Assembly: GCA_049510975.1 (NCBI GenBank)
Contig: JBEKYM010000003.1
Coordinates: 103,011-167,010, forward strand
Direction: 5' to 3'
Source: Acidimicrobiales bacterium
GTDB lineage: Bacteria; Actinomycetota; Acidimicrobiia; Acidimicrobiales; Bog-793
DNA: 64,000 bases
The translations under genes and the position numbers were made by a program. Shown here piece after piece: positions 6,032-41,991 of the stretch (within the stretch, counting starts at the first letter, position 1; each line of letters starts with the position of its first letter). The notes under the pieces were generated by a model that ran no database searches, was not told the origin of the DNA, and worked only from the letters and a program-made list of their open reading frames with translations.

Positions 6032-6766
6032 CTCGTGAGCGAGGGCCGTCACCGTTCCGGAGCCGATCCCCTCGAGAACCTCGAGCGGGCCATCGAGCTC
6101 ATGACGGTCGCGCCCAGCCGCCCCGAGGGCATCGTCCTCACCGGCGATCTCGCCGATTCCGGCGAGCCCGGCGCCTATCGACTGCTGCGAGCCGCCATGG
6201 ACCGACTCTCGGTCGCCCTCGCCGCACCGGTCGTGTACGTGCCGGGCAATCACGACCTCCGCAATGGGTTTCGAGGCATCCTCCTCGAACAAGCCGACGT
6301 CGACGAGACCGCTCCCATCGACCAGATCCACCGCTTCGGCGGGTTGCGCCTGATCTCCCTCGACAGCGTCGTGCCCGGCGTCGACGGCGGCGAACTGCGC
6401 GACGAACAGCTCGAGTGGCTGCGATCCGAGCTCGGCTCTCCGGCGCCCGACGGCACCATCGTCGCCCTCCACCACCCACCGATCAGCTCCCCGATCCGCT
6501 CGATGGCCGCCTTGGCCTTGGCGGAGCCGGAGCGCCTGGCGAGCGCCATCGAGGGCTCCGACGTCTGCCTCGTGATCGCCGGCCACAACCACCACGCCTC
6601 GAGCGGCATGCTGGCGGGCGTCCCGGTATGGGCAGCGCCTTCGCTCTGCTACCGGTCCCATCCCCTCGTCGAAGACGCCTACGTCCCACTGCCCGGAAGC
6701 GCCTTCACGCGCATCGACGTCGTCGACGGCCGACCGCTCGTCACCGTCGTCCCCGTCCCCCTCTGA
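5993..6766 (+). CDS. Metallophosphoesterase (CpdA-like calcineurin-fold phosphodiesterase)
   Basis: Motifs LSDLHL, GDLADSG, GNHD, HHPP and GHNHH in the canonical order. Confidence 0.8.
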   Translation: MGRRLLYQLSDLHLVSEGRHRSGADPLENLERAIELMTVAPSRPEGIVLTGDLADSGEPGAYRLLRAAMDRLSVALAAPVVYVPGNHDLRNGFRGILLEQADVDETAPIDQIHRFGGLRLISLDSVVPGVDGGELRDEQLEWLRSELGSPAPDGTIVALHHPPISSPIRSMAALALAEPERLASAIEGSDVCLVIAGHNHHASSGMLAGVPVWAAPSLCYRSHPLVEDAYVPLPGSAFTRIDVVDGRPLVTVVPVPL

Positions 6767-10442: not shown

Positions 10443-11264
10443 TCAGATCGTGTAGGCGAGGTTGCCGGCGAGGTGCTCGGCGAGGGAGACGTCGCCGTCC
10501 AGCAGGAGGTCGCTGCCGAGGTGGCCGGCCGCCTCGACACGCCCGCCGGTGAGACGCAGGAACAGCATTGCTGGCAACGTGATGCCAGCAGTTGGCTCAC
10601 CGTCGAGGCGGTCGACGACCTCGGCGCGCTCACGCACGCGAACGAGGTAGGTGACCTCGACCGAGCCAGTGAGGCGGATGCGGACGCTCGATCCCGAAGG
10701 CATGGCCGCCTTGCGCCCGACGATGTACCCGAGGGCGGTCGCCGTCTCCGCTAAGGCAGAAGCGACGTGGGAGGGCTCGTCCCGATCTGCCAGCCCGAGA
10801 GCTTGACGGATGTCGTGCTCGTGGAGGAAGCAGTCGTAGTGGCGGATGCGCATGAAGCGCCCGTAGGTCTCGTCGCGCCCGACCGGAGTCCAGGACGGCT
10901 CGTCGAAGTCGGCTTGGGTCATGGCTGACAGCGCCGCCAGCCGCTCGCCGGTGACGGCCTCGAAGCCGGCGAGCACGTCCGCGCCCGAGCGTGCCCGGTT
11001 CGCCTCCACCCAGAGCTCGTTGGCGCGCCCGACATCGTTGCGCACATAGGGCTCATCGGGAACCTCGACCGGCGGCGGCGGCTCGCCGGCGAGCATCTGC
11101 TCGGTGCCGGCGAGGTGACTGAGCTGGTCCTTCACGGTCCATCCGGGCAGGCACGTCGCCGTCGCCCAAGCCTGCTCGTCGAAGCTGCGGCACATCTGGG
11201 AGAGGGCGGCGAACTCCTCGGTGAGCAGTCCCACCATGGCGTCCCGATCGACGATGGTCGCCAT
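10443..11264 (-). CDS. Mycothiol-dependent maleylpyruvate-isomerase-like (DinB/MDMPI_N, TIGR03083-type) protein
   Basis: N-terminal ...WATATCLPGWTVKDQLSHLAG... signature of the MDMPI family. Confidence 0.75.
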   Translation of the reverse strand: MATIVDRDAMVGLLTEEFAALSQMCRSFDEQAWATATCLPGWTVKDQLSHLAGTEQMLAGEPPPPVEVPDEPYVRNDVGRANELWVEANRARSGADVLAGFEAVTGERLAALSAMTQADFDEPSWTPVGRDETYGRFMRIRHYDCFLHEHDIRQALGLADRDEPSHVASALAETATALGYIVGRKAAMPSGSSVRIRLTGSVEVTYLVRVRERAEVVDRLDGEPTAGITLPAMLFLRLTGGRVEAAGHLGSDLLLDGDVSLAEHLAGNLAYTI

Positions 11265-11265
11265 G

Positions 11266-11964
11266 TCAGAGTGCCTCCTTCTGCACCGTCTCCCAGTCGC
11301 GAGCCTCGAGGTACGGGCGGAACGTGCTGGCGATGGCCTCGATGTCGTGGCCCTGCTTGGGGCGCTTCAGCTCATAGAGATGGGGGAACTCCAGCCACGA
11401 CACGAGGCCGTTCCACAGGCGCACGGCGGCCTCGCCGGCGGGCGGGTCGATGAGCACCGGCCCGAAGAGCGCCTGCCCGTCGTCGAAGAACAGCGTCGGC
11501 ACACCGAAGGCGCCGACTGCCGTCACCCGCTCGTGATCGGCGAGCACCTCGTCGTTCGTTGTCGGGTCCTCGATCGCCTGCTGCACGATGCCCGGATCGA
11601 GGCCGAGCTCGGCGAGGAGCGCCTCGGCGACTTCGGGCCGATGGGGCTTGCGCCCGTCCACGTGCAGCGCCGTACCGGCAGCGAAGTACCAGCGGTCGAG
11701 CAGGCTCATGTCCATGCGACGCAGCACGGCGCCGATGCGCATCATGGACCAGCCGTAGGACCAGGGCCGTTCCCAGGGGTGTTTCTTGCCTTCGGCGCGG
11801 TTGATCTCCTCGAGGCTGAAGAACTTCCAGCGGACTTCGAGGCCGGTGCGGTCACGGACCTCCCGCATCCACAGGGAGGTCTGGTACGCCCAGGGGCACA
11901 TGACGTCGAAGTGGAAGTCGACAGCGGTCGGGGCCGGAGGCGGCTCGGTCGTCACGCTCGTCAT
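11266..11964 (-). CDS. DsbA/HCCA-isomerase-like thioredoxin-fold oxidoreductase (single-Cys CPWA motif)
   Basis: [14 protein letters not shown] and [10 protein letters not shown] motifs. The ATG at 11964 overlaps the upstream stop (ATGA). Confidence 0.75.
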
Positions 11965-12527
11965 GATGTCATCCCGCCGAGGCCGACGAGCCCCCGGGCG
12001 AGCTCGATCTCGCCCATGTGGCGCAAGCCGTGCTGGTAGATCCAGCACTCGGCTGCGTCGAGGAGCGTGATGCCGTCCGGGCCGGCGACGCGAGCGCTGT
12101 AGGTGCTGGCGATCTGGGGCGGGAAGGGGCGGGGAACGACGAGCCGATCGAGCTCGGACGGATCGAGGGCGCCCAGCCACGTTTCGGTACGCCCGAAGAC
12201 CGCCCGCTGATAGGCCTTGAACTCGTCGTAGTCGCCGATGCGCTGATGCACCATCTCCTCGACGCTGCGGTGCTTGCCGTGATCGGCGATCGCCATCCCG
12301 ACACGCTCCTGCCACGAAGCGTCCCAGATCGGAGCCACGCCGGTCATGAGCAGGAAAGCAGCGTCGATCATGTTGGTGATGTGGAACAACGAGAAGGCGA
12401 TGGGCACGACACCCTCGCGCTCGAAGTGGTTGACCTGCTCGATGTCCATCGTCTCGACGGCGTCGAAGTAGAGCGAGTGCATGGCGCCCATGCGGCGCTG
12501 GAGTGAGTCCAGGATCAGCTCGCTCAT
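11961..12527 (-). CDS. DinB-family (DinB_2) four-helix-bundle protein
   Basis: His-containing helices ([23 protein letters not shown]) typical of the DinB superfamily. Confidence 0.65.
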
Positions 12528-30827: not shown

Positions 30828-32840
30828 ATGAGGCGCCGTCGCACGGTTGCTGGCATCGCCGTCGTCCTGTGCGTCCTCTCGGCCAGCGCGGTCGTCTCGG
30901 GTTCTGCCGGCGCGGCGTCTGCAAAGGTTGCAAGGGTCCCGTCCTCGCCGGCGTCGTGGACCATCCAACGCCGATTCGACCCCTACCTCCAATACGTGTA
31001 CGGCATCGGGTGCCGCAGCACCCACTGCATCGCCGTGGGTGCTGGACCCCAGGCGGCCAACTCAGGCGGATACGTGGGTGCAGTGGCCTTCACCGTGAAC
31101 GCATCCGCCTGGATGCCCGGGCTTCTCCCAGCCGGCGTCTTCCAGCTGAACGGCGTCTCGTGCGCCACGGCGGCCGACTGCTGGGCTGTTGGCGAGGCCA
31201 CGACGAGTGCCGCAGCGGTCATCGTCGCCACGACTGACGGGGGCAGCCAGTGGACCGCCGAGAATGCCCCGAGCGGCGTCGGCGACCTTGCCAGCATCTC
31301 GTGCCCGTCCACGAGCGACTGCCTCGTGCTCGCGAACGGCAACGGCGTCGTTGCGACGACCGACGGTGGCCGGCAGTGGCAGACCGAGACTCCACCACCG
31401 GCGGCCATCCGTCACGCCGGTATCTCCTGTGCCTCCGAGAGCTACTGCTGGACCGGGACGACCCCCGCCTACGTCACCACCGACCTCGGTGCCACGTGGA
31501 GTGCCCAGAGCTTTCCGACGGGCGACACGCTGGTCTCGCTGTCGTGCCCGGCCGCCGGCGACTGCTGGGCGAGCGCCGGCGGCAACACCATGTTGGAGAC
31601 GACGGACAACGGCGCCGGCTGGACCAGCCACACCGTGAACGCGAGCGAGCTCGGGACGGTGTCGTGCGAGAGCATGAGCGACTGCTTCGTGTTGGCCGCC
31701 AACTCGAAGGAGACCCTCAGCGTCGCAACGACCGACGGTGGCGCGAGCTGGAAAGTGGGGACCTTTCCGGCCGAGTTCAGTAGCGCCGTCTACGGGCCCT
31801 TTGCCTACTTGGTGGCAGTCACCTGTTCGAGCGACACGGACTGCTTCGCCATCGGGGATCCGGAAGGTCCGCCCGCAGTGATCGCCACGACGACCGACTT
31901 CGGGAGCAGCTGGACGACGGGCCGGTTTCCCGGCGGACCCGTAGCCTTCGACACCGTGACGTGCGCGAACGTCGACGACTGTTGGGCCGGCGGGACCAAC
32001 GTCGTCGAGTCGCTCAACTCCATCGGCGCGGTCGTGGCGACGACGGACTCCGGCGGCACGTGGGGCCCGCAGAGCGTGCACGCGGCGAACTCGCTCACGA
32101 GCATGTCGTGTCCGACCACGATGGAGTGCCTGGCGACGACGGACACCGGATTCGTCAGCATCACCAAGGATGGCGGCACGGAGTGGACCTCCAAAGAGGT
32201 GAACTCGTCGGAAGACGCCGGCTTCCTCGGGGTTTCGTGTCCGTCGAGCTTGATCTGCTGGGTCGTCGGAGGTCCCACTGAGAAGACGACAGACGCTGGG
32301 TCCGTGTGGAAGGTGCAGGGGGGCGCTTCGGTCGGCGACCCGGACGCGGTGTCGTGCCCGACAGCGAACGTGTGCGTCGTCGTCGGCGCAGCGCCCCTCG
32401 CCAGCAATGATGTCGAGTACACCTCGGACGGCGGAGGGGTCTGGACGAGTGAATCGGCGCCCGGGGATCCCTCCCTCAGTGACGTGTCGTGCTCCAGCGC
32501 CACGAACTGCGTCGCCGTAGGCGACGACGTTCTGCTCACGACGACAGACGGCGGCCGACAGTGGAGCTCGCACGTACCTCCGGTTGCGGCAGATATCGAC
32601 GGAGTTTCCTGCCCGAGTACCGATGACTGCTGGGCTGTCGGGTACACGACCTCGACACCGAACACGCCCGTGATCCTGACATCGGGCGACGCCGGCAAGA
32701 CCTGGACGACAGAGAGCGTGCCTGCCGGGATCGGCGCACTCAACGCGGTGTCCTGCGTGAAGAACACCACCGACTGTTGGGCAGTCGGCAAGACGAGCCC
32801 CGGTGGTGTGGCGATCCTCTCGACGGTTGAATCGAGCTAG
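30828..32840 (+). CDS. Secreted BNR/Asp-box-like repeat protein with 14 Cys-pair units (putative double beta-propeller)
   Basis: Signal peptide. 14 units of [GST]-[VIL]-[ST]-C-x(4-6)-C-[WFLIV]. About 12 units of T-[TS]-D-x-G-x-x-W. Confidence 0.75.
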   Translation: MRRRRTVAGIAVVLCVLSASAVVSGSAGAASAKVARVPSSPASWTIQRRFDPYLQYVYGIGCRSTHCIAVGAGPQAANSGGYVGAVAFTVNASAWMPGLLPAGVFQLNGVSCATAADCWAVGEATTSAAAVIVATTDGGSQWTAENAPSGVGDLASISCPSTSDCLVLANGNGVVATTDGGRQWQTETPPPAAIRHAGISCASESYCWTGTTPAYVTTDLGATWSAQSFPTGDTLVSLSCPAAGDCWASAGGNTMLETTDNGAGWTSHTVNASELGTVSCESMSDCFVLAANSKETLSVATTDGGASWKVGTFPAEFSSAVYGPFAYLVAVTCSSDTDCFAIGDPEGPPAVIATTTDFGSSWTTGRFPGGPVAFDTVTCANVDDCWAGGTNVVESLNSIGAVVATTDSGGTWGPQSVHAANSLTSMSCPTTMECLATTDTGFVSITKDGGTEWTSKEVNSSEDAGFLGVSCPSSLICWVVGGPTEKTTDAGSVWKVQGGASVGDPDAVSCPTANVCVVVGAAPLASNDVEYTSDGGGVWTSESAPGDPSLSDVSCSSATNCVAVGDDVLLTTTDGGRQWSSHVPPVAADIDGVSCPSTDDCWAVGYTTSTPNTPVILTSGDAGKTWTTESVPAGIGALNAVSCVKNTTDCWAVGKTSPGGVAILSTVESS

Positions 32841-32996
32841 GCGGCGGGACCCCCCGTGGGAGCGAGCAAACGCCGATGCGCCGGCGGAAAGTGTGGCGAC
32901 GCTCGGCTCCGCCCCGGCGAGGCTGGCGCGGTGGACGGAGGTATCCTGCGACCGCGTTGAGCGGCCGGCAGGTTCCGAACTCAGAGGAGGCGCGCG

Positions 32997-33767
32997 ATGG
33001 GTCTTGACGCCGACCCGCTCGAGCGGAGAGAGGCCGGCGAGGGCTTCGGTGACGACGCAACGGCGAACCCCGACGGCGAGCCTCCGGCGCCTGATCAACT
33101 GTTGAGCCAGCATCGCCTCCGGGCGGTCGCACCCATCATCTTCTTCGACGTGGCTGGCCCCCTGGCGGTCTACTACGGCGCTCGGGCGGCGGGTCTATCG
33201 ACGGTGGTTGCCCTCGTCTTGAGCGGCGTCCTGCCCGCCTTCCGGGTGATCGGCACAGTTGCTCGACACCGTCGCCTTGACGCCATCGGCGCGTTGATCC
33301 TCTCCGGAATCGCCATCGGGACGGTGACAGGACTGGCGAGCGGCAGCGCCCGGCTGTACCTGCTCGACGGGATTGTGCCCACCGTTGTGCTGGGCGGTGT
33401 GTGCCTGATGTCGCTGTTGTCAGCCCGGCCGATGATGTTTCGCCTGGCGCTCGAGACAATGGGAGGGGATGACTCGCCGCAGGGCCGCGCCTTCGCCGGC
33501 CTGTGGCGCTACCCCGCCTTTCGTCGAACCCTCCGGATCATCACGTGGGTGTGGGGCTCGGTGTTTCTGGCCGAGTCGGCGCTGCAGGCGATCATCGTCG
33601 AGAGGGCCTCGATCAACACCGCCAAGCAGACGTCCAACCTTCTGCCCGTGGTCGTGTTGTTCTTGACCTTCGCCTGGACACGGCTGTACGGCAAGCGATC
33701 TCAGCAGCGAGGCCAGCACGTGTCGGTGGCAATCGAGGCGAACGCCCCGGGCGAAACCCTCGCCTGA
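32997..33767 (+). CDS. Integral membrane protein of unknown function (VC0807-like)
   Basis: Five to six hydrophobic helices after an acidic N-terminus. Family assignment is tentative. Confidence 0.55.
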   Translation: MGLDADPLERREAGEGFGDDATANPDGEPPAPDQLLSQHRLRAVAPIIFFDVAGPLAVYYGARAAGLSTVVALVLSGVLPAFRVIGTVARHRRLDAIGALILSGIAIGTVTGLASGSARLYLLDGIVPTVVLGGVCLMSLLSARPMMFRLALETMGGDDSPQGRAFAGLWRYPAFRRTLRIITWVWGSVFLAESALQAIIVERASINTAKQTSNLLPVVVLFLTFAWTRLYGKRSQQRGQHVSVAIEANAPGETLA

Positions 33768-33833
33768 GCGCCGGCTCCATCGGCGCCTGCCCGGCCGGAG
33801 CGGGTTGAAGGCAGGCTGGCCACCGGTGCGGAG

Positions 33834-33893
33834 GCGTTTCTGGGTGCATGAACGGGACACATACGTCCCTAAACGTCACCCAGAACGCTGATC
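33834..33893. repeat. Structured repeat, copy A (nested hairpin)
   Basis: TCTGGGTG (33839-46) pairs with CACCCAGA (33877-84), and GGGAC with GTCCC inside. 50/57 identical to copy B. Confidence 0.85.
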
Positions 33894-33994
33894 ATGCTCC
33901 GACGGAAGGCGACCTTTTCGCACGAGGAATGAATCCGGTGTCGCCTCGCCGAGGCGCGATGGGAGCAATTCGCATGCCCCCGGCGGCAGTCGAT

Positions 33995-35233
33995 CTACGG
34001 CGTCTGCGGTGTCGGAGACGGGCCGAGGGCTGCGGCCATAGGCACCGCCAGCGCCTCGACACCGAAGCCGGCCTGGGCGACCACAAAGGCGATGGCGGCG
34101 GCGACGACGGCGTAATACGCCACCGCAACCGGGGGGTTCGTATGGGCAGCGAGGAACACAATCCGCGCACCAAACGTGCCGATGGCACGCCGGCCCCCTG
34201 TAATCCAACCAATGTGCTCCAGGGAGGGTTCGATGAGCGTGTCATCGATGTGGGGCCGCTCGGCCGGATCGAGGCCGTGCCACTGGGCCTTCAGCCTGCG
34301 TCCACCGAAGACGGCCACCTCCACTTCACCGACGAGGTTCCCATGATTCAGCAAATGAGAGAAGTTGCTGCTCACCACGTGCTGAACGGCCTTCTGAACT
34401 CCCGGTGGCAGCAGGCTCGTGATCCGCTTCAGAAGCCACTGGATGATCTTTGCCGCCTCTCGCCTCAGTCTGTTGCGGAATCCTTGAAGCGCCAGGATGG
34501 TATCGATCGCGACGGCACCCTCGTGGGAGCTTCGGACTACATGCTCGAGGGCCGTGATCAGCGAGGGCAGCTCCGCGGCGCCACCGAAGCACGCAAGGGC
34601 AATCGTCTCACTCCCGGCGGCGCTCTCGAGGCGATCGAGCTCGCCTGGGAGGGTCGCCGGCGGATCCACCGCCGCCACCGCCGAGCCGCCACTGATCACT
34701 GCCGCGAACCGTCCGATGTCGGCCCGAGCGTCCTCGCCGAACTCGGCCAGGCTCCTCAAGCGGAACTCCGCCCGAACTGTGCTCGGGGACTCGGCAGCGC
34801 CAAGAAGGACGTCGACGACTGACAGCGAGCCGGCGACGAGGGCTAACGCACGGTTGGCGGCGTCGACCTCCTCGGGTTCGGCGGACGTGTCGGCCCCCTC
34901 GATGGTTCGGTCCAGCGGCTCCTCCCACTCCTCGTCCCGAAGCTCCCGTTCGGTCTGCTCGACGATGAATCGGTCGGGTGACAGGTCCTCGACCGACTCG
35001 TTCGCTGGAAACGTTGACTCCTGCTCCGAGAAGTTGGGGAGCTCGGCGAGAACGCCATCGGAGGCGGCGAGGAACGCAGCGACCGCAGCCTCCGGATCCA
35101 GGCCATCCGGGAACAGCCCGGCGTCGAGGATGCTCATCCGCACCGGCGCAGCACGACGGGCGACATCGATCACTTCCTGCGCCGTGCGCTGCCACTCACC
35201 GGCCGCCCGGTTCAGCTCTTCCGTCGTTGCCAT
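33995..35233 (-). CDS. Orphan 412-aa protein with acidic N-terminal half and C-terminal hydrophobic anchor
   Basis: AGGAGGAGGGG RBS before the ATG at 35233. Long intact ORF. Lower G+C: 103/180 in 34321-34500. No domain recognised. Confidence 0.6.
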   Translation of the reverse strand: MATTEELNRAAGEWQRTAQEVIDVARRAAPVRMSILDAGLFPDGLDPEAAVAAFLAASDGVLAELPNFSEQESTFPANESVEDLSPDRFIVEQTERELRDEEWEEPLDRTIEGADTSAEPEEVDAANRALALVAGSLSVVDVLLGAAESPSTVRAEFRLRSLAEFGEDARADIGRFAAVISGGSAVAAVDPPATLPGELDRLESAAGSETIALACFGGAAELPSLITALEHVVRSSHEGAVAIDTILALQGFRNRLRREAAKIIQWLLKRITSLLPPGVQKAVQHVVSSNFSHLLNHGNLVGEVEVAVFGGRRLKAQWHGLDPAERPHIDDTLIEPSLEHIGWITGGRRAIGTFGARIVFLAAHTNPPVAVAYYAVVAAAIAFVVAQAGFGVEALAVPMAAALGPSPTPQTP

Positions 35234-35429
35234 CGGCCCCTCCTCCTGTCTCGCCCCTCGGCACGATATGCCGTCGGGGGCGCGCCCGAGAGATACAGCG
35301 CCGACAGATCACCGGTGGCGTCATGTGCCCCGATGGGTACTCGACCAGGGCCGAACCAGTCCGGAGACAACCTCACCGACGAGCTGCCGCCGCTTCCAGG
35401 TGTGTCGGCGCCCGTCGATCGACCTTACC

Positions 35430-35786
35430 TCACGCCATTCCGGCAAGGACGGCCACGACCCTGAATTGAGCGAGGCGTCGTGACGTGTGCCGCCACGCCC
35501 ATGGCAGGCACAGCGCGACCATCGCAATGAAGTACAGCAGACCGTAGAGGGCGACCGGCACACCGAAGATGACCGATTCGGGACTCGTCGTGACGACTCC
35601 GCAGTTGACAAACCCGCGGGCCCCGCTGCTCAGCATCGAGCACGAATTGTTGATCGCCTTCTGATCGAAGTAGTGCGCCCACGTGAGCCATCCGGCCAGA
35701 CCGGTGCCCAGCAGGCAGATGATCATCGTGGCGGCAGGCCGCCATCGCCTCGCCACCGGAGACGCCTCGTCTGCTTGGCTTGCCAT
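35430..35786 (-). pseudogene. Truncated VKOR paralogue (TM1, Cys loop and TM2 only; no CXXC helix)
   Basis: GLAGWLTWAHYFDQKAINNSCSMLSSGARGFVNCGVVTTSPESVIFGVPVALYGLLYF aligns with the 608-1180 VKOR. It stops in TM3. No CXXC in any downstream frame. Confidence 0.6.
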
Positions 35787-35813
35787 CAGAATCGTTCCCT
35801 CTCTGCGACGTCA

Positions 35814-36027
35814 ATAGGCTACTTGCGCCAAGTCGGATCGAGCGCAGACGCCTACGGGGACGCCGTGAACCATGGCTTGCTCAAGGGCAAACCAACCCGT
35901 CGTTGGCGGCGCGATGGATCCGGCCACCGGCGGTTACTGGCTGGCCGTCACGGGCGGGGGTGTGAGCGCATTCGATGCCCCGGCCTGTGGGTCGTTGCGC
36001 ACCGGCGTCGTTGCGATCACAACGGGT
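35814..36027 (+). pseudogene. Decayed relic of a GYWL...DGGVF.FGDA repeat protein (frameshifted, no start)
   Basis: Frame 2 reads IGYLRQVGSSADAYGDAVNHG. It then shifts to frame 1, NQPVVGGAMDPATGGYWLAVTGGGVSAFDAPACGSL. Confidence 0.3.
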
Positions 36028-36268
36028 TGTGTGAGTGCCCGGCACTCTGCCCGAGCGCCGGGGAGCGAGGGAATGCCGGTGACGTCGGGTCCGAGTGTTC
36101 CCGTACCCGTTACCGGCGTCACCGGCCCCGCCGTGAGCTGCTGCCCGTCGGAACTGTGACAGGTTGGTGCCACAAAGGCAAGGGGAACGCGCCAGAGCCG
36201 CCTTCCCACCCAAGGGTGGGTGGGAGACCTGTGAAAGCGAGTCGGTCAACTGTCCGCTCGGCTGCCTG

Positions 36269-36329
36269 GCGGTTTCTGGGTGCATGAAAGGGACACATGT
36301 GTCCCCAACCGTCACCCAGAACGAGGATC
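36269..36329. repeat. Structured repeat, copy B (nested hairpin)
   Basis: TCTGGGTG (36275-82), CATGAAA, perfect 16-bp palindrome GGGACACATGTGTCCC (36290-305), CAACCGT, CACCCAGA (36313-20). Confidence 0.85.
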
Positions 36330-36391
36330 CAGGCCAGGGCCGCCGGTTCTTCGCGAATGGGGGCGAGCACCAGACTGTGAAGCAGCGGGGA

Positions 36392-37147
36392 CTACAGCTC
36401 GTGGAGCATCCAGACGTTCGGCTCCCAGTAGCCGCCGATGCCGTCACGAACACTGAGCGGTGCGAGCCCGGACGGGAAGACGTACTCGCCGTCCTCCGGA
36501 AAGGTCATCTCGGTCCATCGCTCCCAGTCGTCCACCGGGGCCTCGATCCGGAGCGATCGTGGCTCGCATCGCAAGACGGTGGCCCCCAACCGAGCGTGTA
36601 CCCGCAGCCAAGGGTCGATCGGCAACCCGTCCGGGCGCTTCCAGGCGGCGTAGCGGTCGATCGGAGTGAGCGGGTAACGATCCTTCCAGCTCGGCCGGAC
36701 GGGGGCCACGAGCGAGGCGAGACCGGCCGTGCGGGCAGCAGCAGCCATCGCCTCGATCACGAGACGGCTCAGACCCCGGCCTTGCTGGTCCGCCGTCACC
36801 TCGGCTGCAAGGGCTGAGAGCGCAGTTGGTGGCCGCGGGTCGTCAATCGCCTGGAGCCCGACTGCGTCGATTCCGACGGGAAGGTCTTCGAGCGAACCGT
36901 CCCATCGGAAAGGAATGGTTCTCCCTCGAGCGACGATGCGGTCCATATCCGTGTCGTAGAGGAGCACCTGGAAATGCGCATGTCGCGGAACGAGCGTTCC
37001 GAAGTACTTTCCGGTGTGATTCCCGTGGTTGTTGTACTCCGGCCATACTCCCTCGAAGCACGAGCGCGCCTGCTCCCAGAGCTCCGGACGCTCCTCGGCC
37101 GTGAACACGTCGATCGACGACGGGCGTCGCGCAGGGGTCGCTTTCAT
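36392..37147 (-). CDS. GNAT-like acetyltransferase family protein
   Basis: Start ATG at 37147. QQGRGLSRLVIEAMAAAARTAG acetyl-CoA-binding-like motif. Confidence 0.65.
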   Translation of the reverse strand: MKATPARRPSSIDVFTAEERPELWEQARSCFEGVWPEYNNHGNHTGKYFGTLVPRHAHFQVLLYDTDMDRIVARGRTIPFRWDGSLEDLPVGIDAVGLQAIDDPRPPTALSALAAEVTADQQGRGLSRLVIEAMAAAARTAGLASLVAPVRPSWKDRYPLTPIDRYAAWKRPDGLPIDPWLRVHARLGATVLRCEPRSLRIEAPVDDWERWTEMTFPEDGEYVFPSGLAPLSVRDGIGGYWEPNVWMLHEL

Positions 37148-37307
37148 CGGCCATATCTTGCCCTGCGCAGGCGCAGCCCCCGTCATCCGTCCGTTGAGAG
37201 CCGTCTCCCGTCGAGCGCACGATCCCGTCGATCGGGGATGGACGCCGGCCCGGCAGACGAACCGAAGTTGTGCGTTCACCTGCCCGCCCGTGTCCGATCT
37301 GGCGCGG

Positions 37308-38000
37308 CTAGGGCTCCCAGACCGCTCCGTCATGGGCGAACACGACTCGTCGGGGGTCGAAGGCTTGGAGGCGCGTGATCCAGTCAGGTACCGGTGGAAG
37401 GTCACCGCCATGGCGGTCGTGGGCGGCACGCGCCGCGAGCACGTCGCGCCCGAACGCCGTCGCACTGTCATGACTCTGGCCGGCGATGATCACCGTCCCA
37501 TCGGCCCGGCGCACGACGACCGACTGGTGGCCGGCGGTGTGCCCCGGCGTCGGCACGACGAACACGCCCCGCAGGATCTCCGCCTCGCCGTCGAGCAACT
37601 CGTAGGACAGCCCTGGGGCATCGACCAGCTCGGCCAGCGTGTAGTCCGGACCTCGAGCTGCTTCGAGCTCGACCCGTTGGGTGAAGATCGGCCGTCCGCC
37701 CAGCCGAGGGTTCCCGCCGCAATGATCGAAATGAAGGTGGCAGTTCACCACGCACTGAACGTCCGCGACGGACACGCCGGCCGTCGCCAAGGCCTCGTCG
37801 AGTGGGAGGCGTCGCGGCCGGTAATGAGCATCCACCTCTGGGTGCGAGCCCATCCCGGTGTCGACGACAATGAGAGCGTCGGGGTGCGAGATGACGTAGC
37901 CCAGGCAGGGCTCCACTCGGGCCTGCCCGCTCCCGGTCTCATCAGCGGGCCGAACGAAGTACCCGTAGTCGATACGTCGCACCCGAAGCTCCATGCCCAT
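37308..38000 (-). CDS. MBL-fold metallo-hydrolase (N-acyl-homoserine-lactonase-like)
   Basis: HLHFDHCGGN zinc motif, and TPGHTAGH. Confidence 0.8.
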   Translation of the reverse strand: MGMELRVRRIDYGYFVRPADETGSGQARVEPCLGYVISHPDALIVVDTGMGSHPEVDAHYRPRRLPLDEALATAGVSVADVQCVVNCHLHFDHCGGNPRLGGRPIFTQRVELEAARGPDYTLAELVDAPGLSYELLDGEAEILRGVFVVPTPGHTAGHQSVVVRRADGTVIIAGQSHDSATAFGRDVLAARAAHDRHGGDLPPVPDWITRLQAFDPRRVVFAHDGAVWEP

Positions 38001-38398
38001 TCAGACCAAACTACCCAGACAGAACGACGGCGAAGCCGGAGTCGGTCGTCGGGTCGGTGGCCCTGTTTCGTCTGAGGTTCGGGCGATTTTCGCTCGCCTC
38101 CACGTCAACGCGCTTGCAGGGATACCTGCTCTGTTGCTAGCGGGTCGCCTGCGTCGGCGTTCGGCCGGGCGTCCATCTGTCGCCAGATGGGGAAACGAAC
38201 GGTGGGAGTGTGGCAAATCCGTAAATGATCGCCGCTGACAGCAGCGCGACGCGGACCCCTACGAAGGACACGAGAAGCCCACCCGGAGGCTTCCGAATGG
38301 GATGCCGACCCACGCCGAGGCGCCGACTGCGCCGAGGACACGGGCTTGGAGGTGGCGGGGGACGCGCTCGTACTCGATCGCGCCGACGATGCCAACCG

Positions 38399-39001
38399 TC
38401 AGGACGAGCTGTTGTCCGACTCGTAGGTGACGCACCCGCTTGTCGTGCCGGGCGCGCACAGGGTGAGTGTCAGGGTGGTGACTTCGTAGCTCCAATCAAC
38501 CGTGCCGTAGGCGGCGTTGCACGACTCGCCACAGTTCGACGTCTCGGTGTCGAGAGCGAGGGTGTTCCCCTGCGTTCTCCACTGGCCAAAGGTCTCGACC
38601 CCCGCACAGTCGCTGTTCTCCGGGTCCTGCGCGAAGCTGAACGTCCCGTTGGCACCGAAAGAGAACGAGTCGATGTCTTGACACGCGCCCGTCATCTCAC
38701 TGCTCTCTTCGACCCAGTTTCCAACCACCGCCTCGTCGAGCGACCCGGTCGGCGCACTCGAGCTCGGGGCGGTGTTGCTCCCAGGCGTCGTGGTGTCAGT
38801 GGAGCCAGGGGGACGGGTGGTCTGGCCCGGGTTGGTGCTTCCTCCTCCCACAGGAGTTGTCCCCGGACCCTTGGAAGGGCCACAACCGGCCAACACCACG
38901 CCTGCGACGATCAGAGCACCCACCGTCCGGGCGTTGAGCCAACGCCTGTGGCACCCTCGTGCCAGGTCACCAAGGCGCGACCCGGGAGTCCTGTCCCTCA
39001 T
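38399..39001 (-). CDS. Lipoprotein with Thr/Pro/Gly-rich linker and Cys-rich lipocalin-like domain
   Basis: Lipobox VVLAGCG, followed by a low-complexity linker and a domain containing 6 Cys. Confidence 0.7.
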   Translation of the reverse strand: MRDRTPGSRLGDLARGCHRRWLNARTVGALIVAGVVLAGCGPSKGPGTTPVGGGSTNPGQTTRPPGSTDTTTPGSNTAPSSSAPTGSLDEAVVGNWVEESSEMTGACQDIDSFSFGANGTFSFAQDPENSDCAGVETFGQWRTQGNTLALDTETSNCGESCNAAYGTVDWSYEVTTLTLTLCAPGTTSGCVTYESDNSSS

Positions 39002-39316
39002 CGTTTCCTGCTCTCTCTGAGGCCCGGTGGCAACGCCAACCCACTGCGCCGGTCCGGGCGCCGTTTCACGTCAGCCCTTGAGTTCGAGCAACTGTATGTG
39101 AAACGCCCGGGATCGGTGACAGCTCCAACCTTGAGAGCGTGGAGCGTCGGACAGGGGTTGAGGGTCGCCGGCTCGACGCGTCGCCGCTTGTGCCATGCGA
39201 TGGCACAGCCTTGTCACGCCTGAAAAGCGGCGGACTCGATTCCGTCGGAGAGCGGCAGGTGCTCGGGCTACTGGTCTGGCGAGCTCTCGCGGGCCTCACG
39301 GCAAGGGGGAGCGAAC

Positions 39317-41773
39317 GTGTCCATGCTCATCGAGAGGACGATCGGGAGGCCGGGGTCAGGGCGACGAGGGGGACGCCACACGTTGCGCGGCGACGGCTGG
39401 CAGCTGGTGTGGCTTGCCCGGGTGGCTGGTGCCGTCGCCCTGGTCGTGGCGACGCTCCTCATGTCGAGCGGGCCGGCCCTTGCCGCCGACTCTGGGGCGA
39501 GTCCGGCGTCCGCCCATTCGGCACCGCTGGACACAGTGGGTGCGAGCATGCCGACACCGCCAGGGTTGCCGGCCCGTCCGCGTGGGGTTGCTCTGCCGAA
39601 GGGGGTCCCTGCGCCGGGCACTTCCGTCTCTCCACCTGGTGCCAAGTCCAACTGGTCGGTCCAGCCGACATCCAACACGCCAAACCTGGAGCCGACCAAT
39701 CTCAGTTCCGTCTCCTGCACGGCGACCAATGCGTGCGAGGCCGTCGGCGACTACTTCGACGGTGGGAAGCAGCTCACTCTGGCGGAGGGATGGAACGGCA
39801 CGACCTGGTCCGTACAACCGAGCGCCAACCCGAACGCCTCCAACGCTCTGAACGCGGTGTCATGCACCGCTGCCACAGCATGTGAGGCAGTCGGCTCGAT
39901 CTACAACGGCGAGGACTCCTACCCTCTGGCCGAGGTTTGGAACGGCGCAGTCTGGACCAGCCAATACATCCCCAACCCGAGCGGCTCTACCTACAACGAA
40001 CTTGAGTCGGTCTCCTGCACGGCGTCCGACGCCTGTATGGCCGTGGGCTACTCCTACATCGACTCGGAGTGGTCCACGTTGGCGGAGGCTTTGAGCGGGA
40101 GCAACTGGACGATTGAGTCCACCCAAAACCCAGGCGACATCAACTACCTGTACGGCGTCTCCTGCACAGCAGCTGATGCCTGCGTCGCCGTCGGCGACTT
40201 CGACTGCTCGTCGTACTGCGGCCTGGTCGAGGTCTGGAACGGGACGAACTGGTCGGACCAGTCCATGCCCAACCCGAGCGGCGTCTCCCTCACTTTCCTG
40301 GACGGCGTCTCCTGCACGGCGACCGATGCTTGTGAGGCGGTGGGTGAGTATTACGTGGGTGAGGACACGGTCACCCTGGCGGAGAGCTGGAATGGGACGA
40401 CCTGGTCGGAGCAGTCCACTCCCAATCCGACTGGGGCGACCGGCAATGCCCTCGAAGGCGTGTCGTGCACAGCGACAGACGCCTGTATCGGCGACGGCTG
40501 GTACTCCAACGGTTCGCAGACCTTGCCCTTGGCAGAGGACTGGAACGGGAGCACCTGGATGATCGAGTCCCTCTACGACTCGTTCGGCAACTCCGGCCTC
40601 TCCGGAGTCTCGTGCTCGTCGGCCAGTGCGTGCCAAGCCGTCGGTAACTATGAAGACGGTGCAGGCGACTACCCGCTCGCATATGTGTGGAACGGGTCGC
40701 AATTGGCCTTCCAGATCGTCCCGAACGGAGCCAGCAGCAGCTCGCTGGCTTCGGTGTCGTGCACGGCGGCCGACGCGTGTGTTGCCGTCGGATACTCCCT
40801 CCCCCTCATCGGCTCCGATTACTCGCCTCTGGCCGAGACCTGGAACGGGACGAGCTGGGCCCTCATGTGGCCGCCCCCGCCCAACCCAAACGGCTCCAGC
40901 GACACCTACCTCGAGTCGGTCTCCTGTACCACGGGCGGCTGCATGGCCGTCGGGCAGTACTGGAACGGTTCGGCCTACCAGAGCCTGGCCGAGGATTGGA
41001 ACGGGAGCAGCTGGACCCTCGAGCCGACCTCCAACCCAGGCAGCAGCACTGAGCTGCTCGGCGTGTCGTGCACGGCGGCCAACGCCTGCGAGGCCGTCGG
41101 TACGTACTCGAATGGTTCCGACTACGACAGCCTGGTTGAAGTGTGGAATGGGACGGCTTGGTCGGACCAGTCCAGTCCCAACCCCGCCAAATCGCTCGGC
41201 ACCTACCTCGACGGGATCTCGTGCACGGCGGCAGGTGGCTGCGAAGCTGTCGGGTCCTACTACAAGGCCTCAGGTGTCTACTACACCCTCGCCGAGACCT
41301 GGAATGGCACCAGTTGGGCGATCCAGTCGAGCCCGAGCCACAAGGGTGCCTCCAGTTTCCTGGGGAAGGTGTCCTGCTCAGCTACCGATGCTTGTGTGGC
41401 CGTCGGTACCTACGACAAGAAAGCTGGAACCGTGCTCACGCTGGCCGAGAGCTGGAACGGCACGAGCTGGGCCATCAACTCCAGTCCCAACCCCGGCAAA
41501 GCTGGGAGCGCGCTGGACGGGGTCTCCTGCAGCGGGGAGAGTGGCTGCGTGGCCGTCGGCTACTACGACACCGACTCGGGCTCTCAAGCACTCGCCGAGT
41601 CCTGGAACGGGACGACGTGGGCCTCCAGCCGGACCGCCATTCCTTCCGCCGCGATCGGCAGCTCCCTTGCAGGCGACTGGTGCAACGGCGTCAGTGCGTG
41701 TGTCGCCGTCGGCAGCTACTCCAACATCTCCGGTGTTTCGCTGACGTTGGCCGAGGCAGAAGGCGGGGACTAG
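39317..41773 (+). CDS. Secreted 14-unit Cys-pair repeat protein (SC-T-x4-C-x-AVG ... LAE-x-WNG-T/S-x-W ... PNP)
   Basis: Signal peptide ending ALAADSG. 14 units of ~45-55 aa, counted by eye. Confidence 0.8.
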   Translation: MSMLIERTIGRPGSGRRGGRHTLRGDGWQLVWLARVAGAVALVVATLLMSSGPALAADSGASPASAHSAPLDTVGASMPTPPGLPARPRGVALPKGVPAPGTSVSPPGAKSNWSVQPTSNTPNLEPTNLSSVSCTATNACEAVGDYFDGGKQLTLAEGWNGTTWSVQPSANPNASNALNAVSCTAATACEAVGSIYNGEDSYPLAEVWNGAVWTSQYIPNPSGSTYNELESVSCTASDACMAVGYSYIDSEWSTLAEALSGSNWTIESTQNPGDINYLYGVSCTAADACVAVGDFDCSSYCGLVEVWNGTNWSDQSMPNPSGVSLTFLDGVSCTATDACEAVGEYYVGEDTVTLAESWNGTTWSEQSTPNPTGATGNALEGVSCTATDACIGDGWYSNGSQTLPLAEDWNGSTWMIESLYDSFGNSGLSGVSCSSASACQAVGNYEDGAGDYPLAYVWNGSQLAFQIVPNGASSSSLASVSCTAADACVAVGYSLPLIGSDYSPLAETWNGTSWALMWPPPPNPNGSSDTYLESVSCTTGGCMAVGQYWNGSAYQSLAEDWNGSSWTLEPTSNPGSSTELLGVSCTAANACEAVGTYSNGSDYDSLVEVWNGTAWSDQSSPNPAKSLGTYLDGISCTAAGGCEAVGSYYKASGVYYTLAETWNGTSWAIQSSPSHKGASSFLGKVSCSATDACVAVGTYDKKAGTVLTLAESWNGTSWAINSSPNPGKAGSALDGVSCSGESGCVAVGYYDTDSGSQALAESWNGTTWASSRTAIPSAAIGSSLAGDWCNGVSACVAVGSYSNISGVSLTLAEAEGGD

Positions 41774-41918
41774 TCCTTGGGGGTCTCGGTCTCGTCCGGA
41801 TAGGACCCTTCAGATGGGCGGCGTCGGCAACGATCGCGGCGGGCTTGGGCAGTTGTGGTCCGAGGCGGCCAACGTCAGGGGTCGATTCCGATGCTCGGCG
41901 TGTGTGGCTGGCGTGTTG

Positions 41919-41991
41919 CTGGCGGGGGAGGGCTCGAACCTCCAACCTCCTGATCCAAAGTCAGGCGTTCTGCCGATTGAACTACCCGCCA
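41919..41991 (-). tRNA. tRNA-Gln (anticodon TTG), no encoded CCA
   Basis: 73 nt folded by hand. Acceptor TGGCGGG/CCCGCCA, D arm GTTC/GAAC, anticodon arm CCTGA-CTTTGGA-TCAGG, T arm GGAGG-TTCGAGC-CCTCC. Confidence 0.9.

Follow-up and report, generated by a model that had tools for sequence, protein, structure and literature searches.

We describe a short palindromic element that is present in two copies, A and B, in a 64,000-nucleotide (nt) stretch of an Acidimicrobiales genome of the Bog-793 lineage (GenBank assembly GCA_049510975.1, contig JBEKYM010000003.1, positions 103,011 to 167,010 of the forward strand; hereafter the window), and that belongs to a sequence-conserved family dispersed among related genomes. 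Weighing the evidence set out below, we lean towards the view that it is a gene-end palindrome comparable to the repetitive extragenic palindromes (REPs) and to the mycobacterial motif TRIT, that is, a dispersed, low-copy, two-tier hairpin that is probably read by a sequence-specific protein. The family appears to be undescribed, and the kind of element that it represents, namely short palindromic repeats at gene ends, is well known; its more unusual features are its fixed double-box geometry and its low copy number.

The 48-nt core of copy A occupies positions 33838-33885 of the window and that of copy B positions 36274-36321, each within an extended repeat unit of 58 nt (33836-33893 and 36272-36329, respectively; no strand is assigned to these features or to their parts). 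Each core opens with the 5' arm of an outer box, TTCTGGGTG (33838-33846 in A, 36274-36282 in B), whose partner is the 3' arm CACCCAGAA (33877-33885 and 36313-36321), these arms being invariant or nearly so throughout the family. The inner module of copy A is composed of GGGAC, the 6-nt centre ACATAC and GTCCC (33854-33869), and that of copy B is a perfect 16-bp palindrome, GGGACACATGTGTCCC (36290-36305), as a first-pass annotation of this DNA had recognised; copy A shows two mismatches to it. The extended units lie in the same orientation, 2436 nt apart, and are identical at 51 of 58 positions (88%), which makes them the sole significant direct repeat in a direct-repeat search of the region from 33.0 to 37.2 kb. 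The pattern TCTGGGTG-N30-50-CACCCAGA has two matches in the window versus none in 100 shuffles, and the covariance model of the family, run with its filters off, picks out only A and B there, at 73-78 bits, with the next site reaching 10 bits. Three of the seven differences between the copies fall in the 7-nt spacers (N7) separating outer and inner boxes, two in the 6-nt centre and two in the 3' flank; none affects the 9-bp outer or the 5-bp inner boxes. Being palindromic, the element folds on either strand, and a nested fold is predicted for both copies on either strand, as RNA and as DNA, with predicted RNA energies of -25.6 to -32.7 kcal/mol and z-scores of -1.95 to -6.1. The two look-alike nested hairpins noticed at first pass are thus real and fold as described there, and the stop-codon distances then given for the minus-strand genes are correct, the extended copies standing 101 nt (A) and 62 nt (B) away and the cores 109 nt and 70 nt. 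Either outer arm occurs twice in the window, in every case within A and B; with no isolated boxes there, a role as an uptake signal of the DNA uptake sequence/uptake signal sequence (DUS/USS) type was rejected.

The search for further copies that the first-pass annotation had proposed, made in metagenomes and GTDB and with a covariance model, uncovered a family of about 25 non-redundant copies from Acidimicrobiales metagenome-assembled genomes (MAGs) and from peat and permafrost metagenomes. An exact-pattern scan of GTDB with one genome per species (GGGTG-N6-8-GGGAC-N6-GTCCC-N6-8-CACCC) returned 25 loci, mostly unrelated perfect G+C hairpins, among which three match the complete outer boxes as well as the centre and are true members, with L015 and L024 both in the same Acidimicrobiaceae MAG and L026 in an 'Actinomycetes' one. 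About 20 further relatives came from a half-site scan of JGI metagenomes (TCTGGGTG-N7-GGGAC-N6-GTCCC), which gave 35 contigs, chiefly from samples of peat, bog and permafrost; the half left unspecified in this pattern also reads CACCCAGAA in around two-thirds of them. The core consensus is TTCTGGGTG-N7-GGGAC-RNATNY-GTCCC-N7-CACCCAGAA, spanning 48 nt, and the extended consensus is nTTCTGGGTG-N7-GGGAC-RNATNY-GTCCC-N7-CACCCAGAAn. GGGAC and GTCCC are invariant in all 21 aligned copies, the outer stem is paired in 96.8% of the cells of this alignment, and the 7-6-7 spacing holds in all but three of the approximately 25 copies (the exceptions being L052, L053 and the second copy in L059/L060). Taken together, the four boxes are almost invariant, the sequence of the N7 spacers is free, the central A-T is conserved, and the flanks are weakly conserved over about 5-15 nt, with a weak CTCGGRRGY on one side. 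In BLAST comparisons with the window, sequence similarity between loci is confined to the 48-68-nt element. With A and B, the copies at L032 and L049 share 88-92% identity, which is as close as A is to B. Copy number is low, with 1-3 per MAG; the strict pattern, which recovers about 80% of the known members, detects two copies in the MAG CAZAMA01 and one locus in WH2.bin64.

A scan with the 4227 covariance models of Rfam 15 yielded no hit in the window at gathering thresholds and, between 33700 and 36500 at E<=10, no hit overlapping the element. IMG/VR and INPHARED returned nothing real and PLSDB a single chance hit of 22 nt, and a phage or plasmid origin was rejected on these searches. A search of the literature yielded nothing on palindromic repeats in Acidimicrobiia, and its matches to the box sequences were coincidental, as exemplified by TEM bla primers containing CACCCAGAAACGCTGGTG. 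As far as the searches made show, the family occurs only within one clade of uncultured Acidimicrobiales from peat and soil.

Comparisons of orthologous sites reveal what is held constant. At the site shared by L024 and L026 the flanks are 84% identical and the element shows no difference over 46 positions, the intergenic DNA being otherwise substituted and rich in indels. In the rplL-rpoB spacer of L056 and L060 the flanks are 82-88% identical and all four boxes are kept, with the N7 spacers sharing 3 of 14 positions. These two comparisons indicate that the boxes and their spacing are constrained and that the spacer sequence is not. In a typical structured RNA the stems covary and the loops are conserved; the pattern in this family is the reverse. 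Given that the boxes are fixed in sequence and set at a fixed spacing, we posit that the element is subject to sequence-specific recognition at a fixed geometry. Pairing is also retained in several variant copies: L055 and L053, whose N7 spacers differ, are both perfect palindromes over 48 bp; in L059/L060 the second copy carries the double change TTCTGGATG/CATCCAGAA (GGATG/CATCC) with pairing kept; and the copy at 8163-8220 of L044 has TTCTGGGTT/AACCCAGAA (GGGTT/AACCC), again paired, around a different interior. The N7 positions themselves pair slightly more often than controls, in 52% of cells as compared to 47% after shuffling and 18-41% with a slid partner, and 33 of 500 shuffles reach the observed value. 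Together, the variant copies and the N7 pairing are suggestive only, either of pairing that matters or of a mutation process that generates it.

Genomic contexts, assigned with a gene caller based on G+C content at third codon positions (GC3) and with Pfam, place most copies 19-114 nt downstream of stop codons, measured from stop to core. Five to six loci are convergent intergenic regions, with stop-to-core distances of 19-114 nt: those of copies A and B, where the plus-strand open reading frames (ORFs) end at 33767 and 36159, the L024/L026 spacer between a kinase-like gene and a glycosyltransferase gene, the L046 spacer between a thiolase gene and recR, and the L055 spacer between pntB and an unknown gene. 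Other copies follow the rplL stop and precede the rpoB promoter region (by 55 nt after the stop in L056 and 51 nt in L059/60), or lie after a stop in a tandem or one-sided arrangement, at 27 nt in L040, 32 nt after msrB in L035, 32 nt in L041 and 77 nt after cysS in L039. An outlier in L047 stands 448 nt after hisG. As the neighbours are unrelated housekeeping genes (such as rplL, pntB, msrB, cysS and recR), the element is not tied to any cargo.

Two further observations concern these sites. The rplL-rpoB spacer holds one copy in L056 (2341-2388) and two in L060 (640-794) and L059 (120-274), all of which come after the rplL stop and before a TTGAC...TACCCT sequence that resembles a promoter and precedes rpoB; the E. 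coli counterpart of this spacer contains an attenuator and an RNase III site. A second motif, GGAGGGGGTTTCG, occurs 14-30 nt upstream of the element in L024 (1235-1247), L026 (3115-3127, minus strand) and L046 (490-502, minus strand), and thus at the orthologous L024/L026 site as well as at the non-orthologous L046, just past the recR stop. In some copies this motif could belong with the element to a longer composite unit, or it could be a small repeat in its own right.

As single-stranded RNA or DNA, the element is predicted to form a two-tier hairpin with a 9-bp outer stem, a symmetric internal loop of approximately 7x7 nt that is often partly paired, and an upper tier consisting of a 5-6-bp inner stem and a 4-6-nt loop. 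Since it sits mainly 19-114 nt after stops, often between convergent genes, its most likely role is that of a gene-end hairpin, which might act as a U-tract-less, probably factor-assisted bidirectional terminator, and/or as a structure protecting the 3' end of the mRNA. Such a role, proposed earlier for TRIT in mycobacteria and demonstrated for certain REPs of E. coli, is suggested by the placement, by the scarcity of canonical terminators here (five terminator-like sites in 12 kb versus 4.9 expected) and by the analogy to TRIT. The invariant boxes and fixed spacing would imply a putative sequence-specific protein partner. Copies A and B are two independent members of this low-copy, sequence-conserved palindrome family, which probably reached non-orthologous sites by some copying or mobilisation process, to which the in-frame copies within ORFs and the local tandem duplications point. 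Among the four options offered by the first-pass annotation, a REP- or miniature inverted-repeat transposable element (MITE)-type element and a structured 3'-untranslated-region or protein-binding hairpin both fit a dispersed family of post-stop palindromes.

Several observations weigh against this proposal. No U-tract is found on either side of the hairpin, which is followed on either strand by AGAAC, AGAAA or AGAAT; the U-rich tract of 7-9 nt of a canonical intrinsic terminator is accordingly wanting, a terminator scan does not call the element, and this lack argues against simple intrinsic termination. The mycobacterial RNA polymerase, moreover, reportedly needs a U-tract in vitro. The first-pass annotation had interpreted kept stems and varying loops as the outcome of selection on a hairpin: the stems are indeed conserved, but family-wide they are so in sequence and not by covariation, which is atypical of an RNA constrained in structure only. 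The seemingly compensatory variants could arise by template switching at quasi-palindromes without selection. One-sided changes are mostly wobble-compatible in an alignment whose orientation is arbitrary, but L040, L044 and L047 show an A-C mismatch on the sense strand, and no consistent G-U strand emerges once the direction of the neighbouring genes is considered. Not all placements conform either: L029 lies in the spacer between divergent thiolase and thioesterase genes, L015 in a divergent promoter region 27 nt upstream of a tRNA-Pro gene, and two copies (L044 and L050) reside inside ORFs. Finally, REP and TRIT each reach far higher copy numbers.

TRIT, a Rho-independent terminator motif of Mycobacterium, is a mostly bidirectional, sequence-conserved palindrome at gene termini (Gardner et al. 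2011, PMC3152330), present in 147 copies per genome and centred about 8 nt before the stop codon (PMC3152330). Like TRIT, the family described here is actinobacterial and consists of sequence-conserved gene-end palindromes that are mostly bidirectional and without a canonical U-tract. With a conserved palindrome at gene termini and in both directions, the likeness is a functional one only. The two differ in their hosts, which are Acidimicrobiales in the present case, whereas TRIT is reported to be restricted to Mycobacterium (PMC3152330). They further differ in abundance and position, this family having few copies per genome at 19-114 nt after the stop, and in the two-tier architecture with a fixed 7x7 spacer that characterises it. 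The element has no match among the Rfam families, whether TRIT or any other.

The resemblance to the REPs of Proteobacteria, and to the related bacterial interspersed mosaic elements (BIMEs) and REP doublets forming hairpins (REPINs), lies in short imperfect extragenic palindromes that are found after genes or between convergent genes, are conserved within a lineage and persist at orthologous sites. In addition, the inverted pair of approximately 24-nt half-units of the element resembles a minimal REP doublet. REP-type elements can stabilise the upstream mRNA or bind proteins. Unlike REPs, the element is found in tens of copies or fewer, not hundreds (two in the 64 kb of the window), its flanks show no GT(A/G)G or GTAG-type 5' tetranucleotide, no REP-associated tyrosine transposase (RAYT) is linked to it in the scanned regions of the window and the loci fetched, and some of its copies lie inside ORFs.

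A bolder extension of the gene-end reading, to which we attach only tentative weight, is that the element is the cis site of an undescribed Acidimicrobiales protein-nucleic-acid system, in which a sequence-specific factor reads two nested box pairs, set at a fixed geometry, on a hairpin or cruciform at gene ends. The factor could be one dedicated to termination or to 3' ends, a hairpin-binding transposase or recombinase that has been domesticated, or a protein acting as a roadblock in replication or topology. Canonical terminators are scarce in high-G+C actinobacteria, and the way in which transcription units end in them is a matter of continuing debate. If true, the proposal would point to a new factor-dependent marking of transcription-unit boundaries in U-tract-poor, high-G+C bacteria, and a second gene-end palindrome, independent of TRIT, would strengthen the idea of factor-recognised hairpins for some lineages. 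The class that hosts the element is uncultured, and the fixed box geometry argues for a protein partner; the 48-nt element also offers a compact pull-down bait and the covariance model a tool for metagenome surveys.

The same boxes might alternatively be half-sites, set at a fixed spacing, that a multimeric protein recognises in duplex DNA, the hairpin then being irrelevant; the protein could be a nucleoid or chromosome organiser, a roadblock or replication-pause protein, or a repressor. Such a site would account for invariant boxes with a conserved central A-T and N7 spacers free in sequence but fixed in length, for boxes kept at orthologous loci while the spacers turn over, for a low copy number per genome like that of matS, parS or Ter, and for the lack of a consistent strand bias among the G-U-compatible changes. 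We deem it a live alternative, but less likely than a gene-end hairpin: the symmetric double changes (GGATG/CATCC and GGGTT/AACCC) would weaken both half-sites for a dimer, yet pairing is kept in them; in several copies the pairing runs on into N7, or the whole core is a perfect palindrome with its own N7 sequence; the placement after stops and between convergent genes is unlike that of operators; and the boxes never occur alone in the window.

How the element spread bears on another alternative, that of a selfish miniature mobile element of the MITE or REPIN kind, maintained in trans by a transposase encoded elsewhere, for example a RAYT or a Y1 enzyme of the IS200/IS605 type acting on hairpins, with no host function and a placement that reflects mere tolerance of insertion. 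In L044 an in-frame copy sits in a hypervariable loop of an acetoacetyl-CoA synthetase ORF, where its core reads FRVGDGDASVPIAHPE; at the position of the element, 23 aa are missing from P0126, which is the closest homologue (88-91% identity). In the sole comparison of a filled with an empty site, 69 nt present in L044 are absent from L074, the boundaries being ambiguous in this hypervariable loop. L050 carries a decayed in-frame copy in an ORF of the SAM hydroxide adenosyltransferase (SAM_HAT) family. Tandem duplications involve a 100-nt unit in L026 and a 63-nt unit in L047, the latter being single in L061 at the same locus. These in-frame copies and duplications, together with the polymorphism of one versus two copies between L061 and L047, speak for a selfish element, as do the near-identical copies at non-orthologous sites (L032 and L049) and the rplL-rpoB orthologues, which may differ in orientation, the centre matching at 5 of 6 positions when reverse-complemented versus 2 of 6 as aligned. 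Against it stand the very low copy number, the lack of a terminal signature such as the GTAG of REPs, and the absence of a transposase near any copy in the scanned parts of the 64-kb window and the loci fetched around the other copies. As to the hallmarks of a MITE, the element is itself an inverted repeat, and no consistent target-site duplication was found among the family copies: TCGGGAG occurs on both sides of the element in L035 and around no other copy, and the boundaries in the L044/L074 comparison are ambiguous. Furthermore, lineages diverged by about 16-18% retain the boxes at orthologous sites while the neighbouring intergenic DNA decays, which argues for continuing selection or continuing enzyme action. 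We accordingly regard a purely selfish element as a live alternative, but a less likely one than a gene-end hairpin; should it hold, the value of the family would be that of a lineage marker and of a cause of assembly breaks. A similar relation is seen with the in-frame MITEs and the Rickettsia palindromic elements (RPEs), which likewise are palindromic repeats located between genes and also in frame within them, leaving the reading frame intact. RPEs are 100-150 bp long and numerous. The present element differs in being 48-60 bp long and rare, and neither a signature of terminal inverted repeats with target-site duplication nor a parent insertion sequence (IS) was found for it.

The headline of the first-pass annotation, in which A and B were att-like sites bracketing a mobile cassette of lower G+C content, is not supported by these comparisons, and we consider it very improbable that att- or attC-like sites delimit the 2.4 kb between them. 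In its favour are the shared orientation of the two copies at a distance of 2436 nt, each just 3' of a minus-strand gene, a location in a variable island where gene fragments and genes without a family occur, and a likeness to the smallest attC sites, which are imperfect palindromes of some 57-60 nt at gene 3' ends with an outer stem, an unpaired spacer or internal loop, an inner stem and a terminal loop. The arms TTCTGGGTG and CACCCAGAA, however, do not fit the RYYYAAC/GTTRRRY boxes of attC, the base before TTCT being variable and GTT/AAC not conserved; this family conserves sequence across genomes and not structure alone; and the other members do not form arrays but are single and dispersed beside core, housekeeping genes. 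No integrase, transposase or tyrosine recombinase is encoded within about 10 kb of the copies, in the island or in the parts of the window scanned. An attC, Xer or dif site was rejected, the boxes not fitting and no recombinase being nearby.

The locus itself gives the same answer. Five other contigs of the same species, from other samples and 99.2-100% identical, are collinear and carry both copies wherever they cover them. In L066, the nearest relative apart from these, identity is 92% over 32938-33726, after which come a WYL regulator and no element; synteny is lost about 100 nt before copy A, within the 3' end of the DUF3159 gene and not at the element, and the contig is not long enough to reveal where collinearity returns. 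No empty or excised form with a single copy, such as the indel bounded by one copy that the first-pass annotation had suggested looking for in relatives, was seen among the five same-species contigs and L066. More distant relatives have other neighbours again, including an IS110 transposase. Homologues of the 412-aa gene lying between the copies, found in three clusters on four contigs, have no element nearby, the best covariance-model score there being 11 bits. The spot downstream of the DUF3159 gene is thus variable, and this variability is not tied to the element. As a caution for annotation, two nearby copies of a dispersed repeat should not be taken for the ends of a mobile cassette. One same-species contig, L001 (from GCA_964502025.1, otherwise 99.8% identical), has 153 unrelated nt (6361-6513) in place of the 183 nt at 35432-35614 of the window, in the 3' part of the VKOR fragment, a strain-level replacement that shortens the VKOR ORF further; L075 has the 183-nt version of the window.

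We also observed that three metagenome contigs of the species, L038, L002 and L077, end at window positions 33909, 33958 and 36246, within 20-70 nt of the copies, which may reflect branching of the assembly graph at the repeat or strain variation. A small ORF, suggested by GGAGG-N7-GTG before the core in some copies and a core reading M-x-x-R-D-x-x-V-P-x-x-H-P, was rejected because the palindrome alone yields the same peptide pattern on both strands, and because its stop is not conserved (after 15 codons in A and more than 50 in B) and the ORFs overlap the convergent genes.

With respect to the neighbouring genes, the plus-strand gene at 32997-33767 codes for a DUF3159/VC0807-family membrane protein, ends 70 nt before the core of copy A, and is the last gene syntenic with L066, the closest relative. 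Converging on copy A is a minus-strand gene of 412 aa without family assignment (33995-35233); described at first pass as an orphan, it is nearly but not strictly one, its three homologue clusters showing 53-63% identity. It is followed by a minus-strand fragment of the VKOR family (35430-35786), whose truncation, already noted at first pass, is borne out by a match to positions 3-98 of the 134 of the Pfam profile PF07884. A plus-strand ORF of 81 aa (35914-36159; 95 aa if read from the ATG at 35872) converges on copy B and appears as a fragment of a repeat protein, with a GGYWL...GGGVSAFD motif. Beyond copy B, a minus-strand gene of 251 aa (36392-37147, in an ORF open to 37471) without family assignment has its stop 70 nt from the core. 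The idea that the intervening genes form a defence island was dropped, PADLOC and NCBIfam giving no hits.

The lower G+C content claimed for this interval is real in value (66.6% versus a window mean of 68.6%) but marginal, given a standard deviation of 1.5% among windows of the same size, 11.7% of which are as low. The 5.7 kb beyond copy B are lower still (66.1%, to about 42 kb), and the dip is not bounded by copies A and B. Neither the dip nor the break of synteny with L066 coincides with the copies, and the 2.4 kb between them are ordinary variable-island DNA, not a cassette that they define.

The region 33750-41991 looks like one variable genomic island, with a G+C content of 66.1-66.6% versus 68.6%. 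It contains genes of 412, 251, 200 and 818 aa without a Pfam, NCBIfam or PADLOC family, along with the VKOR fragment, the repeat-protein fragment and a gene for an AiiA-like lactonase of the MBL fold. On the left it is bounded by the DUF3159 gene, where L066 synteny ends at about 33726-33747, and on the right by tRNA-Gln(TTG) (41918-41991), beyond which lies a conserved cluster of Clp_N-domain, ispE-like, ksgA, tatD, metG and rsmI genes. In a relative of 75% identity (L068/L069, positions 310-765 and 11210-12223), a transposase of the IS110 family follows the DUF3159 gene, with a replication gene of the RepSA-like kind 9 kb upstream, an arrangement that fits a neighbourhood serving as a hotspot for integrated elements in the clade. 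Large Cys-rich repeat proteins that look paralogous flank the region, at 39317-41773 and 31074-32840, one with ...WNGT.W....VSC....C.AVG... repeats and the other BNR/Ycf48-like, with TTDGG..W...SCPS...C repeats; the 81-aa GGYWL fragment may be the relic of yet another repeat protein.

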